Source: a virus (taxonomy: Duplodnaviria > Heunggongvirae > Uroviricota > Caudoviricetes). From it: 35,013 nt of DNA. The DNA lies in IMG/VR virus record IMGVR_UViG_2534681831_000020, positions 1 through 35,013 of that record. One strand, given 5' to 3'. The notes beneath the pieces are model-generated. The model made no database searches. It was given only the letters and a program-made list of their open reading frames with translations, and was not told where the DNA came from. Below, piece after piece: positions 3,728-29,169 of this stretch (the first letter of the stretch is position 1; the number at the start of each line of letters is the position of its first letter). Position numbers and translations under genes: made by a program.

Positions 3728-3734
3728 ATCGTCC

Positions 3735-4130
3735 TCACATCTCGTATGTAATGGAATAAGTCAGATCTGCAGAACTCCATAACGCCATATCGTCATCACG
3801 ACGATACTCATAGCCCTGCGTAACCATCGTGGTAATCAGTCCTGCCAGTGCCGGGATCGCGGTCATCGCCGGGTAAATCCGGCTTTCCATCCACTGATCA
3901 AGCTCTGAATCCGGTACCTGTGCCGGTAAAAACACCTCAATATGCAGCGTGGCCCGCCAGGTATCTGCATCCAGCTCTTCACCGGTATACTCTGCATCCG
4001 TCAGATAAACCGCGATCGCAGGAAAATCCTCTTCGTCAAAAACAACGGGGCGACCATCAAACAGCGTCGCCCCGTGTTCATGCTGCTCGAGTGCATCCAG
4101 CACTGCGGCACGAATGTCAGTGTGTTTCAT
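3735..4130 (-). CDS. U: tail terminator / minor tail protein U
   Basis: 131 aa, [33 protein letters not shown]...[10 protein letters not shown], lambda U-like; position between Z and V. Confidence 0.85.
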
Positions 4131-4660
4131 CGTTTTATTGCAATCCTCAGTTGTTGTTTCAGCGCGTATGCCAGTTCTTTAGGCAGGCGTTCACGCCGGA
4201 TACGGTCAACATTCTCATCAAATGCCTGTTTCAGTGGGGCCGCCATCGGGATTTTCACCACATCAATGGGGTAACGGTTTTTCCCGGCCACACGCTGCAT
4301 GACATGCCAGCGACCATTTTTTAATCGCTGAATAAATGCCCGCTGATACCGATGCTGACCGGCTTTAAGTATGCTGTTCGGGCGACGCCCCAGCATCCTG
4401 ATCCCCAGCTTAATCACAGGGAGATCACCGCGGTTAACGATAATTCTGGCATTCGGATTTCTGACCGTCGCCCGTTTCAGTCTGGACCGTTCCTTAACCA
4501 GTTTCCGGCGAACCTTTGTCTCCCGGGCAACCTGTGATGAAGACTGATTAATCGCCGTTGTGGCCACGCGGTTAATGGCCATTGCTGAAGCCGCCGGAAT
4601 GGCGTTTTTACGAACCCGGCTCAGATTGTCAATCGCCTGATCAAGCCCTTTTATCGCCAT
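4127..4660 (-). CDS. Z: minor tail protein Z (tail completion)
   Basis: 177 aa, MAIKGLDQAIDNLSRVRKNAIPAASAMAINRVA...GKNRYPIDVVKIPMA, lambda Z-like; start overlaps U start region by 4 nt. Confidence 0.85.
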   Translation of the reverse strand: MAIKGLDQAIDNLSRVRKNAIPAASAMAINRVATTAINQSSSQVARETKVRRKLVKERSRLKRATVRNPNARIIVNRGDLPVIKLGIRMLGRRPNSILKAGQHRYQRAFIQRLKNGRWHVMQRVAGKNRYPIDVVKIPMAAPLKQAFDENVDRIRRERLPKELAYALKQQLRIAIKR

Positions 4661-26256: not shown

Positions 26257-27360
26257 TTACCCGAGCACGCCGGTTGCAAAGGCGTGATCAAGAAAACGAA
26301 AAATTAAATCAACCTGGGAACCATGCTTTTCTTCGAACGCCAGCGGATCCGCATGAAGCTCGTTGTGATGCTCCCGACACAGCGGTAGCGTGAAAATATC
26401 GTGGGATTTTGTTCCCATTCCGCCCTGACCATGACCAATCAGATGATGAGGATCGTCCGCTGGCTTACCACAACACGCACACGGCTGTGTCTTTACCCAG
26501 CGTGTGTATTTCTCATTTACCCAGCGGCGACGTTTAGGTCGTTTCATGAAGGATTCCGGAGACTCCGGATCAACGGCAATGCTGACCACCGTCTTTTCCT
26601 GTGGTGGGTTCTGTTGCTGGTGGGTGTGAGGCGGTAGCGCAATATTTTTTGTGCGCTGCTTCAGTATGCTGGTGGCGGTCTGTTCTCCCGGTATGATGTC
26701 GCTTTCACGGTATACGGAGCGGATTTTTTCCGCCGGTAATCCCAGAGAGCGACGCGATACTGCCTCAGGTAATGCGTCCACCACCTGATTGCAGACTGCC
26801 CACCAGGATAATTCAGCCAGCGATAATTCCCGCTCCTGCGTGCCATTCATTACATGGCGTATGACGTCAATCATCCAGGCTGTCAGATTTTGTTGAGTAA
26901 GTTGCTCAAGTGATTCGGAGGTCTGGTCGCGCAGCTGGTTGTCGCAGTGCCAGCACAACACCATTGCGCCAGCACCGTAACTGTGAATAACGGTTTCGCT
27001 GTGATGATAATCGCCGTGTGGCCACTGGCAGGATTTCACGTGACGTAATAACCAGTCAGACAGTGCACCAGCGCCGCCAGCTGCACGAATCACCCGCTCA
27101 TCGCTGAAAAATGGCAGCAGTGATTTATCTTCCGCCAGCGGCTGGCGAACAGCAGGAACCGCTCCAGATGGCAGCGCCCGCATGTTTTTCGGTTCCGGCT
27201 CCACCAGCACCCTGCCGCGATGAAAAACTGGCAATGATTCACGACCGGGCTTAAGGACCACCAGCCCGAGTTCCGGAACCAGAACAGGTCGAAGTAATAC
27301 CCGCACATTACCTCCAGACGCGCTGACGGTAGCAGGCATGTGTCCGTGGCAGATGTGCAC
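26257..27360 (-). CDS. DUF968-family protein with C-terminal Cys/His HNH-like motif; start uncertain (an internal start near 27183 would avoid overlap with the upstream ORF)
   Basis: C-terminus ...RWVKTQPCACCGKPADDPHHLIGHGQGGMGTKSHDIFTLPLCREHHNELH; this frame is closed upstream of 27390; positional equivalent of ydfU upstream of Q in the K-12 Qin prophage (recalled). Confidence 0.5.
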   Translation of the reverse strand: MHICHGHMPATVSASGGNVRVLLRPVLVPELGLVVLKPGRESLPVFHRGRVLVEPEPKNMRALPSGAVPAVRQPLAEDKSLLPFFSDERVIRAAGGAGALSDWLLRHVKSCQWPHGDYHHSETVIHSYGAGAMVLCWHCDNQLRDQTSESLEQLTQQNLTAWMIDVIRHVMNGTQERELSLAELSWWAVCNQVVDALPEAVSRRSLGLPAEKIRSVYRESDIIPGEQTATSILKQRTKNIALPPHTHQQQNPPQEKTVVSIAVDPESPESFMKRPKRRRWVNEKYTRWVKTQPCACCGKPADDPHHLIGHGQGGMGTKSHDIFTLPLCREHHNELHADPLAFEEKHGSQVDLIFRFLDHAFATGVLG

Positions 27361-27580
27361 GAACAGGAAGATATACAGAAACGGTCCAGGTCAGACGATC
27401 AGCGTTCAGACTCCGCTCCACACGGACACCGCGACGCAGATACGCCTCTTGAAGCATATCTGCCTCATCGATCGTACAGAACAGATAGTGAAACCAGCCA
27501 TACTGAGGCGCACGAAAACGCCTCCCCTGCTTAATTTCCGGGTCGGCTTCAGAATTGTGGGATTTTATGTGTTGTGTCAT
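27308..27580 (-). CDS. hypothetical small protein (Rem-like by position)
   Basis: 90-aa ORF between the hok-type toxin region and the DUF968 gene; overlaps the DUF968 ORF by 53 nt. Confidence 0.3.
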   Translation of the reverse strand: MTQHIKSHNSEADPEIKQGRRFRAPQYGWFHYLFCTIDEADMLQEAYLRRGVRVERSLNADRLTWTVSVYLPVRAHLPRTHACYRQRVWR

Positions 27581-27654
27581 CGGATTCTCCGGTGACAGCA
27601 GGTGTCAGTTGTTCAGGCTGACTGCGCGAATTGTAAGGCAATACGCCGGAATGT

Positions 27655-27686
27655 ACAAACAGAAAACCCGTCAGTAAGACGGGCTT
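27655..27686 (-). terminator. intrinsic terminator downstream of the YgiW-like gene
   Basis: Minus strand: aaGCCCGTCttactGACGGGCttttctgttt, a 7-bp stem with T-rich tail about 20 nt after the stop. Confidence 0.5.
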
Positions 27687-27701
27687 AACAAGCAGGGGCG
27701 G

Positions 27702-28046
27702 TTACTTTAATAATTTCAGTGCCTTTACATCAACTTCAACACTGCTCAGGTCTTTATCAATTTCACCCTCAATTCTTACTTTGTCTTTCGGAGAAACATT
27801 CTGCCCGGCCCATACGCTGTCATCAATATCCGTGACAATTGTCCCGCTATTGTCACGAAACTCATAACGTTCATCACCCACTTTTTTAACGATGCTCCCT
27901 TCAAGGATAACCCATGCATCATCCTTCAGTTCTTTTGCCTGCGCTACTGTTGAACGCTCTGCTTCTGGCCCCTGGAAACCACCCTGCTGTGCAAAAGCGC
28001 CAAAAGACACACCGGAAATAAGTGCTGCAATCAATACCTTTTTCAT
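27702..28046 (-). CDS. YgiW/YdeI (BOF) family periplasmic OB-fold protein (moron)
   Basis: 114 aa with signal peptide MKKVLIAALISGVSFGAFAQQ and GGFQGP...TVAQAKELKDDAWVILEGSIVKKVGDERYEFRDNSGTIVTDID...VRIEGEIDKD, resembling E. coli YgiW. Confidence 0.7.
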   Translation of the reverse strand: MKKVLIAALISGVSFGAFAQQGGFQGPEAERSTVAQAKELKDDAWVILEGSIVKKVGDERYEFRDNSGTIVTDIDDSVWAGQNVSPKDKVRIEGEIDKDLSSVEVDVKALKLLK

Positions 28047-28165
28047 TCATAGTCCTCTTTCAGAGATGAACATTCAAACAGCATTTTCAGTATGGTAAAG
28101 CGCGGGTGCGTTGAGGATGCCTGACACATCAGAGGTGGCGGGAGATTACTCCCCCGCCTGGTCTC

Positions 28166-28321
28166 TTACTTCTCAGATTCGTAGTCTACGAAGACAGCGA
28201 CCTCCGTCTGACCGGTTCGGATTCGCACCTCGCAGAGGTCTTTCCTCGTTACCAGTGCCGTCACTATGACGGTTAAACAGATGACGATCAGGGCGATTAA
28301 CATCGCCTTTTGCTGCTTCAT
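28166..28321 (-). CDS. hok: Hok/Gef-family type I toxin (51 aa)
   Basis: MKQQKAMLIALIVICLTVIVTALVTRKDLCEVRIRTGQTEVAVF..., near-identical over most of its length to HokD/RelF as I recall it; an upstream in-frame extension (track ORF start 28378) is Mok-like. Confidence 0.8.
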   Translation of the reverse strand: MKQQKAMLIALIVICLTVIVTALVTRKDLCEVRIRTGQTEVAVFVDYESEK

Positions 28322-28611
28322 AGCCTGCTTCTCCTTGCCTTTCGGCACGTAAGAGGCTAACCTACATGTGTTCAGCATGGATTGAGCCTCAGATTAATGT
28401 TAAGCGTCTTGCAGGACGCGTAATGTTAACTGGGGCTTTTCTCTATCTGCCGTTGGTGTTCATGCCCGAGGCAGATAGCCTCAAGCACCCGCTGCAATTC
28501 TACTTAACTATCCTTTTCCCGCAAACCGTTTTTATCCCCAGCGGCAAATCGAATACTCCACCAGCGCCACCGCCATCGCAATTCCTACCGTTGTGAATGC
28601 TTCAGGCCAGG

Positions 28612-29169
28612 TCATTGATTCACCTCCTGCGGCGGTTCTGGTAGCGACATCCAGTGGGTTGCTTGCCTAAGAGCATTACCCGGACTAACTGCTATACCTC
28701 CGCGCCGGAACGTGCCTCCGAGATAGCGTGCGGAATATATTAATGGCCCAGCCTCGCTATCGATATTCATCGAAATAAGCACGTTCTGGCTCTTTTCAGG
28801 CATTCGCTCAGTACAGCTTATCCAGCCATCCAGAGTTATCGGAGATCTGGTTGACGTTTCCGAGATTTCCCGAAAATTGTTGGTTGACGAATTCTTATTT
28901 TCCCGAAAGTTTCCGGCCTGAAGCATGGCGACGCGGCAGGCGTTCCAGCCATCAGCATATGTTTTAGTTACACCGTCGAGATGGCAGGTAAGCAAATCCA
29001 TTTCATCAGGCACTACCATTGCTATCGGCTCTGCTTCCAGTGATGCCAGCGCGATACGAAACACATTAGCCAGCAGGCTGTCTGAAGACTTGTTATCGTG
29101 CGCCGAGTCGCTCAGGAAGCCTGTGATGTATGATTTAATCTCCGCGCGTTCTCTGGTAATAGTGCTCAT
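28612..29169 (-). CDS. DUF551-family protein
   Basis: 185 aa; C-terminal ...WISCTERMPEKSQNVLI...THWMSLPEPPQ resembles the DUF551 signature of enterobacterial prophages (recalled). Confidence 0.45.
   Translation of the reverse strand: MSTITRERAEIKSYITGFLSDSAHDNKSSDSLLANVFRIALASLEAEPIAMVVPDEMDLLTCHLDGVTKTYADGWNACRVAMLQAGNFRENKNSSTNNFREISETSTRSPITLDGWISCTERMPEKSQNVLISMNIDSEAGPLIYSARYLGGTFRRGGIAVSPGNALRQATHWMSLPEPPQEVNQ

Follow-up and report, generated by a model that had tools for sequence, protein, structure and literature searches.

A mobile hok/sok cassette carrying a YgiW-like gene in the nin region of a lambda-like Escherichia coli prophage

Main finding

A 35,013-nt stretch of viral DNA (IMG/VR record IMGVR_UViG_2534681831_000020; hereafter the window) was analyzed around a gene of the BOF (YgiW/YdeI) family at 27702-28046. 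Sequence comparison indicated that BOF does not move alone but as part of a mobile hok/sok+BOF cassette of about 0.9 kb, at about 28537-27655 in the window. The explanation preferred here, which as a whole is considered probable, is that BOF is a second cistron of the hok transcript and encodes an exported YgiW-like stress protein on a mobile cassette. The initial annotation had described the gene as a self-contained moron. This description was not supported, as no promoter of its own was found and the gene was always joined to hok and lay inside the hok unit. The correction is useful: in this cassette, BOF appears to borrow both the hok promoter and the position of the hok terminator.

Source prophage and gene neighborhood

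A prophage of E. coli O111:H8 strain 8B (NZ_CP077473.1) matched the window region at 100% identity; its BOF protein is RefSeq WP_000756596.1. The element is a lambda-like, long-tailed prophage, and BOF lies in its nin region. The order there, on one strand, is replication genes, DUF551, hok/mok/sok, BOF, a 90-aa ORF, DUF968, RusA, DUF1133/Q-like, and tRNAs. The features from BOF onward were as follows:

27702-28046, - strand: BOF/YgiW-family gene, 114 aa (family and structure matches, dN/dS)
27655-27686, - strand: intrinsic terminator closing the cassette (scan, fold, boundary, conservation)
27308-27580, - strand: 90-aa ORF, with PHROG 1212 (unknown function) as its sole match; kept in nin regions
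26257-27360: DUF968

The coordinates and description of the gene and terminator in the initial annotation were correct. Of the flanks it had named, Hok/Mok (28166-28378) and DUF968 stood, while the label "Rem-like" for the 90-aa ORF was rejected: BLASTP against K-12 Rem gave E = 18, despite the same position. This ORF had no Pfam or NCBIfam match. The statement that the K-12 Qin prophage has no gene of this kind proved right; the order there is ydfU(DUF968)-rem-hokD, and the BOF gene is absent.

Identification of the BOF protein

The 114-aa protein matched Pfam BOF PF04076 (E = 1.9e-33; 115.1 bits, cut-off 25.8) and NCBIfam NF033674, "NirD/YgiW/YdeI family stress tolerance protein" (E = 3e-40; 136.8 bits, cut-off 35). 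TIGR00156 was barely passed (112.3 bits, cut-off 108.15). PDB 1NNX, the solved E. coli YgiW, was matched by sequence with E = 3.5e-29. The AF2 model, whose alignment was made without K-12 sequences, had a pLDDT of 94-98 over residues 31-114, where five strands were predicted to form an OB-fold barrel. Its top Foldseek match in the PDB was also 1NNX (E = 1.4e-11, target-normalised TM 0.91), followed by generic OB folds. Membership of the BOF family, as initially proposed, was therefore confirmed by profile, sequence, and structure matches.

Comparison with the two chromosomal genes, which the initial annotation had suggested, gave 47-52% identity to K-12 YgiW and 35-37% to YdeI, with YgiW the closest. 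The phage protein shares with E. coli YgiW and Salmonella VisP the BOF family, a Sec signal peptide, the OB fold, and QGGFQGP at the mature N-terminus. YgiW differs in having 130 aa and two QGGF repeats, whereas the phage protein has one. YdeI/OmdA of Salmonella and E. coli and SipA of V. cholerae are of the same family. Orthology was rejected in both cases. For YdeI, the equivalog model NF007471 scored 64.8 bits against a cut-off of 179, and identity was low. For YgiW, the location in a prophage nin region and not by qseBC, the length of 114 aa instead of ~130, and the single QGGF were decisive. The phage protein is best regarded, from its sequence, as a paralogue nearest to YgiW. Unlike ygiW, the phage gene travels with hok on a mobile cassette and is probably regulated differently. 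Chromosomal BOF genes of other genera, ~50% identical, were among the matches listed in the contig scan.

Against alleles 81-82% identical, the dN/dS of BOF was 0.17-0.23 at a dS of 0.37-0.55. These values indicate that the ORF is a real gene under purifying selection. The product, a single OB-fold domain of the BOF (YgiW/YdeI/VisP/SipA) family, is predicted to be exported to the periplasm by Sec.

Signal peptide and detection of the protein

A signal peptide was encoded by codons 1-19 (28046-27990). It had an MKK start (n-region charge +2), a 16-residue hydrophobic core (mean Kyte-Doolittle 2.74), and a predicted junction between AFA and QQ. The predicted mature end aligned with the start of the 1NNX chain, that is, with its mature N-terminus. 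The predicted mature protein had 95 aa, a mass of 10.5 kDa, and a pI of 4.6. The 99%-identical allele of phage 933W, whose first 77 residues are identical to those of the window protein, has been placed in SignalP class SPI (PMC12962677). The N-terminal features and this assignment agreed with the earlier claim that the protein is secreted with a signal peptide.

The 933W allele, UniRef identifier A0A4P8BAV1, appeared as "Z1498" in a 2026 secretome study of EDL933, in which supernatants of cultures grown with no inducer were analyzed by mass spectrometry (PMC12962677). Z1498 was equated with the 933W gene L0136 through this identifier. It was reduced in a type II secretion mutant (PMC12962677). 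The detection in uninduced cultures bears on expression from a repressed prophage, but the 933W structural proteins Z1480 and Z1483 were found in the same samples (PMC12962677), so spontaneously induced cells may have contributed Z1498. EDL933 may also carry more than one BOF allele.

The hok/mok/sok unit upstream of BOF

The following features were located upstream of BOF:

28497-28524, - strand: hok promoter-like site TTGCGG-16-TAGAAT (PWM score 9.2), with a start at ~28490, position 1 of the Rfam match
28094-28490, - strand: equivalent of the full-length hok mRNA, with 5' tac at 28490-28479 and 3' fbi at 28116-28104 (RF01794, fold)
28370-28440, + strand: Sok antisense RNA, position transferred from the sokW annotation of 933W (97% identical DNA)
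28335-28363, + strand: sok promoter-like site TTGCCT-17-TAACCT (score 8.3), with a start at ~28370 that fits the 933W sokW annotation
28166-28378, - strand: mok frame (70 aa), containing hok at 28166-28321 (51 aa; HOK_GEF PF01848, E = 1e-22)
28137-28158, - strand: hok 3' stem-loop GGCGGGGGAG-TAAT-CTCCCGCC (fold result), no T-run behind it
28047-28103, - strand: spacer of 57 nt from fbi to the BOF ATG, with the Shine-Dalgarno AGAGGA at 28058-28053, 6 nt before the ATG

RefSeq CDS WP_000813258.1 falls at the mok/hok position. The Rfam match to RF01794 covered 28316-28490 with 113.5 bits against a gathering score of 59. In the MFE fold of the 397-nt hok RNA (-162.6 kcal/mol, z = -6.2), the first 12 nt paired with the 3' end (fbi). 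The 3' stem-loop was kept in all cassettes and in K-12 hokD. Judged from sequence and predicted folding, the hok mRNA architecture is intact, with Hok within mok, the Sok antisense RNA, and tac-fbi end pairing. In the spacer, terminator and promoter scans detected neither a terminator nor a convincing promoter. Its Shine-Dalgarno was conserved, and the rest was less conserved than coding sequence.

The Rfam "sok" model RF01794 matched the hok-coding strand, namely the hok mRNA leader, and not the antisense strand. Rfam matches to ceN48 and sR2 were below their gathering scores and were treated as chance.

Synonymous divergence was uneven within the cassette. For the same allele pairs, dS was 0.06-0.07 in hok (28166-28321) versus 0.37-0.55 in BOF (27702-28046). 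Constraint by the RNA structure of the hok mRNA would fit this contrast, as would mosaic recombination at the boundary formed by fbi.

The terminator after BOF

The hairpin AAGCCCGTC-TTACT-GACGGGTTT with the run TCTGTTTGT lay at 27686-27664, 16 nt past the BOF stop, and its tail extended to ~27655. The hairpin folded at -14.3 kcal/mol (z = -2.4). The terminator scan found 1 site in 1.5 kb versus 1.2 expected from shuffles, which by itself is not above chance; the single terminator-like site on the - strand of 27200-28700 was the one after BOF. The hairpin was conserved across three contexts that are unrelated to one another, with one double change from G.U to C-G, and the homology to 933W ended at exactly 27655, the end of the terminator tail. 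The terminator is credible because of this position and conservation, and the clean intrinsic terminator that had been claimed was upheld on these grounds.

Limits and contexts of the cassette

The cassette is ordered as hok promoter, mok/hok with antisense Sok, 3' stem-loop and fbi, 57-nt spacer with Shine-Dalgarno, BOF, and terminator. A 976-bp block at 27655-28630 was 97% identical to 933W, where the flanks were unrelated. The 933W gene L0136 (ECs_1244 in Sakai Sp5, Z1498 in EDL933; WP_000756596.1 family) encodes a 99% identical protein differing in one residue (V78I), with the same hok/mok/sok neighbor, spacer, and terminator. In 933W, a short-tailed Stx2 phage, the cassette lies close to attR at the right end, after the tail gene L0134 and in opposite orientation, unlike the window copy in the nin region of the lambda-like O111:H8 prophage. 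L0136 was annotated in 933W (AF125520, deposited 1999) as "similar to hypothetical YgiW and YdeI proteins" and adjoins hokW/mokW/sokW. The BOF gene has therefore been known since 1999 and is not a new observation.

Three further sites showed hok followed by BOF. Another nin region (L011) encoded a protein 82% identical to that of the window. A non-phage chromosomal site (L007-L010) encoded a protein 81% identical within an 836-bp block of 87% identity, in which homology started at 28537; in L007, hok is at 3728-3883 and BOF at 4001-4345. In another lambdoid nin region (L045), a BOF gene ~60% identical again stood directly after hok. At >=80% coverage, the query with BOF alone and the query with hok+BOF gave identical sets among complete E. 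coli genomes, 553 records from 550 genomes. The linkage to hok was universal among complete genomes with the gene, and the pair recurred in four contexts.

The gene was found in 570 of 5426 complete E. coli genomes, and the match covered >=80% of the query in 550. It thus marks ~10% of these genomes, nearly all of them EHEC serotypes; carriers were overwhelmingly O157, O111, O145, O26, O103, and O121. It was also present in 45 Stx-phage records at >=98% identity.

The features of a moron were examined for BOF and for the cassette. K-12 Qin and the BOF-less nin region L039 run from hok to the next ORF and then to DUF968. In L039 the intervening segment is 37 nt including a terminator, against 457 nt including BOF and terminator in the window; the sequences on either side are again homologous. 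The GC content of BOF was 45%, against 52-57% in the flanks. The terminator at 27686-27655, a hairpin with a T-run, is conserved across contexts. A promoter was lacking for BOF alone and was present for the whole hok/sok+BOF cassette, namely that of hok. The classical lambdoid morons (lambda bor and lom; HK97/HK022) are similar in being extra genes absent in relatives, with lower GC, a terminator, and an exported envelope protein. They differ in that the promoter-to-terminator unit here is a two-gene hok/sok+BOF unit, in which BOF alone has no recognisable promoter.

The L007-L010 cassette, which is phage-free, is flanked by a cytochrome c peroxidase/cytochrome b562 pair on one side and by mrp-metG on the other. 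The mrp-metG of these hosts is only 87% identical to K-12, so they are not typical E. coli, as which the genomes are labelled. This allele was absent from all 5426 complete E. coli genomes. Further BOF paralogues were found in mobile or stress-linked surroundings. An E. coli plasmid (NZ_CP062843.1; L041, 2979-3329) carried one of ~70% identical DNA next to the zinc exporter zitB. Among chromosomal relatives without hok, the nearest (L043/L044, 3001-3384) was 56-61% identical and lay beside a YdgH/BhsA-like gene near rnr-rlmB.

Transcription of BOF

The initial annotation had proposed promoter prediction upstream of 28046. Consensus and PWM scans for sigma-70-type promoters, the latter with shuffles, found no site there above the shuffled background: the best usable candidate scored 5.8, against a mean best of 7.7 in shuffles. 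The PWM scan did recover neighboring promoters (hok 9.2, sok 8.3, and a site after the terminator 10.2). The top match, TTGAAT-17-GACTAT, was rejected, as its transcription start would fall inside the ORF. The L045 spacer contained no promoter match either, and inspection by eye upstream of BOF gave no convincing PhoP-, PmrA-, or RcsB-type box.

The 3' ends of related hok units were then compared. K-12 hokD (relF) of Qin and other hok/sok loci are homologous to the window in hok, the 3' stem-loop, and fbi (94% over 28094-28335), and hokD occupies the same nin position before DUF968. Unlike the window, K-12 hokD has no BOF and has relBE in place of the sok/mok part. The region homologous to K-12 hokD, and to hokD-type loci in more than 4000 genomes, ended at 28094, the fbi end. 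In K-12 the terminator ACCCGC-TTCG-GCGGGTTTTT (also given as ACCCGC-TTCG-GCGGGTTTTTGTTTTT) lies directly past fbi, and in the IncY plasmid hok the terminator lies within ~20 nt of fbi. Unlike these and L039, the window hok unit has no terminator until 27686, ~420 nt past fbi. In L045, the terminator AACCCGC-TTAG-GCGGGTTTTTT, almost identical to that of K-12 hokD, sits after BOF and not after fbi.

In the window and in the ~60%-identical L045, BOF thus lies between fbi and the terminator of the unit, as would most readily be expected of a second cistron on the hok transcript. Co-transcription of BOF with hok is accordingly the likely arrangement, as far as gene order and terminator position can indicate. 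The terminator argument draws solely on equivalent position and on the near-identical terminator of L045; no homology is claimed between the window terminator and that of K-12 hokD, such stems being common. A defined 3' terminus at fbi is required in the classical hok mechanism, and an extension of 440 nt would need to be removed or tolerated. Rho-dependent termination or processing may occur after fbi.

The main competing explanation is a true single-gene moron, in which a dedicated promoter within the spacer or the hok 3' UTR drives BOF, possibly under stress control of the RpoS-, Rcs-, PhoP/PmrA-, or QseB-type, and the two genes are neighbors only through joint capture. A -10-like hexamer at 28094-28089 (CATACT/CATGCT/TATGCT), with A2 and T6 conserved in three diverged alleles, could be a weak or activator-/RpoS-dependent promoter missed by the sigma-70 matrix. 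BOF has its own Shine-Dalgarno and terminator, its nearest hok-free relative (P0015) stands alone by a bhsA-like gene, and family members on the chromosome respond to stress through promoters of their own (PMC6370654). However, the -35 position of this hexamer falls inside the invariant fbi and matches in only 3/6 positions, and no candidate reached the shuffled level while three neighboring promoters were easily found. The hok linkage was also kept in the same layout from ~60% to 100% protein identity in four contexts, and a hok-type terminator follows BOF in L045. An independent promoter is thus considered unlikely, and read-through from hok is preferred.

Possible function of the cassette

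Under the preferred reading, BOF would be transcribed in the lysogen by read-through from the constitutive hok promoter. In the nin-region context, additional transcription from the early rightward operon would be expected during lytic growth. Translation would start from the ribosome-binding site of BOF itself, and the Sec pathway would export the protein. Like YgiW, YdeI, and SipA, it might then bind outer-membrane proteins or cationic peptides and so confer tolerance to envelope stress, while the hok/sok addiction module would retain the cassette. Within the family, YgiW, YdeI, VisP, and SipA are the members known to confer tolerance to peroxide, cadmium, or antimicrobial peptides (PMC6370654). 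YdeI/OmdA and SipA act in the periplasm, with porin or OmpA partners, and contribute to tolerance of polymyxin and other antimicrobial peptides, H2O2, and Cd (PMC6370654). YgiW and SipA cross-complement H2O2 and Cd sensitivity, and SipA binds antimicrobial peptides and OmpA (PMC6370654); YgiW-OmpF and YdeI-OmpD interactions are cited in the same paper. By analogy with these proteins, a role of the phage protein in stress tolerance is about evenly balanced between yes and no. A true increase in tolerance to antimicrobial peptides or oxidants would make the protein a lysogenic-conversion factor of EHEC prophages. Expression from the hok transcript, if it occurs, would provide an example of a toxin-antitoxin locus with a cargo gene.

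A closer coupling of the two genes can also be envisaged, in which hok/sok and BOF function together as a three-part system. The template for BOF translation would be a 3' extension of the stable, translationally silent hok mRNA, so that the 3' trimming that arms Hok must first remove BOF; alternatively, periplasmic BOF would buffer or modulate the membrane damage by Hok. This is regarded as rather improbable. If true, a type I toxin-antitoxin locus would serve both to express and to retain a cargo gene.

Phages use porins and other outer-membrane proteins as receptors. The BOF protein might serve the phage, either by binding outer-membrane proteins from the periplasmic side and blocking superinfection, or by acting mainly in lytic growth through early-operon read-through. 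Family members bind OmpF, OmpD, and OmpA (PMC6370654), the window gene is oriented with the early rightward operon, and among phage records the clade is confined to lambdoid and Stx phages. However, the 933W cassette opposes the late/tail genes near attR and is therefore in no lytic operon there, a phage-free chromosomal copy exists, and no exclusion phenotype was found in the literature searched. Service to the phage was therefore judged very doubtful.

A decaying or silent passenger without function, as might be supposed from the "unknown function" of its PHROGs family (1230) and from the lack of any published phenotype found, is hardly credible given the dN/dS of 0.17-0.23 across a dS of 0.37-0.55, the intact ORF in 550 genomes, and the detection of the 933W protein by mass spectrometry (PMC12962677).

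In the literature searched, which covered the gene in 933W and Sakai, the BOF family, and ygiW in prophages or O157, the phage allele was not the subject of any functional study. An "OB fold protein" is mentioned in PMC9731836, in detail too thin to tie it to the phage BOF gene.

Association with haemolytic uraemic syndrome

In an Irish STEC case-control study with GWAS, "ygiW_2" together with "group_5720" (mokC-like) was associated with haemolytic uraemic syndrome (HUS), with an adjusted odds ratio of 5.5 (PMC11950266). The same GWAS flagged stx2B, a Q antiterminator, and ydfU (PMC11950266). That paper treats ygiW_2 and group_5720 as an interacting gene pair, apparently with no remark on adjacency. 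The two genes are physically adjacent members of the hok/sok+BOF cassette. As the HUS-associated genes comprise the cassette and its nin neighbors, hitch-hiking with Stx2a-type prophages is the simplest reading, and the association likely reflects phage carriage.

Additional features of the window

A strong promoter-like site, TTGTAC-17-TACAAT, was found at 27630-27658 on the - strand with a score of 10.2. It overlaps the terminator tail and faces the 90-aa ORF, DUF968, RusA, and Q-like genes. Its TACAAT and the downstream sequence were conserved in the BOF-less L039, and K-12 Qin has a comparable site, TTGAAG-18-TAGAAT, after the hokD terminator.

The tRNA cluster at 23773-24024 (Arg-TCT, Arg-TCG, and a CAT-anticodon tRNA, Met per ARAGORN and Ile per RefSeq) was 92% identical to the cluster preceding stx2 in Stx2 phages. 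After the tRNAs, at about 19837-23567, came an IS66-family element with a nested IS1203, then TerB, DUF3927, and an SASA esterase. Since IS elements follow this stx2-type tRNA cluster, insertion sequences occupy the place that stx has in related phages.
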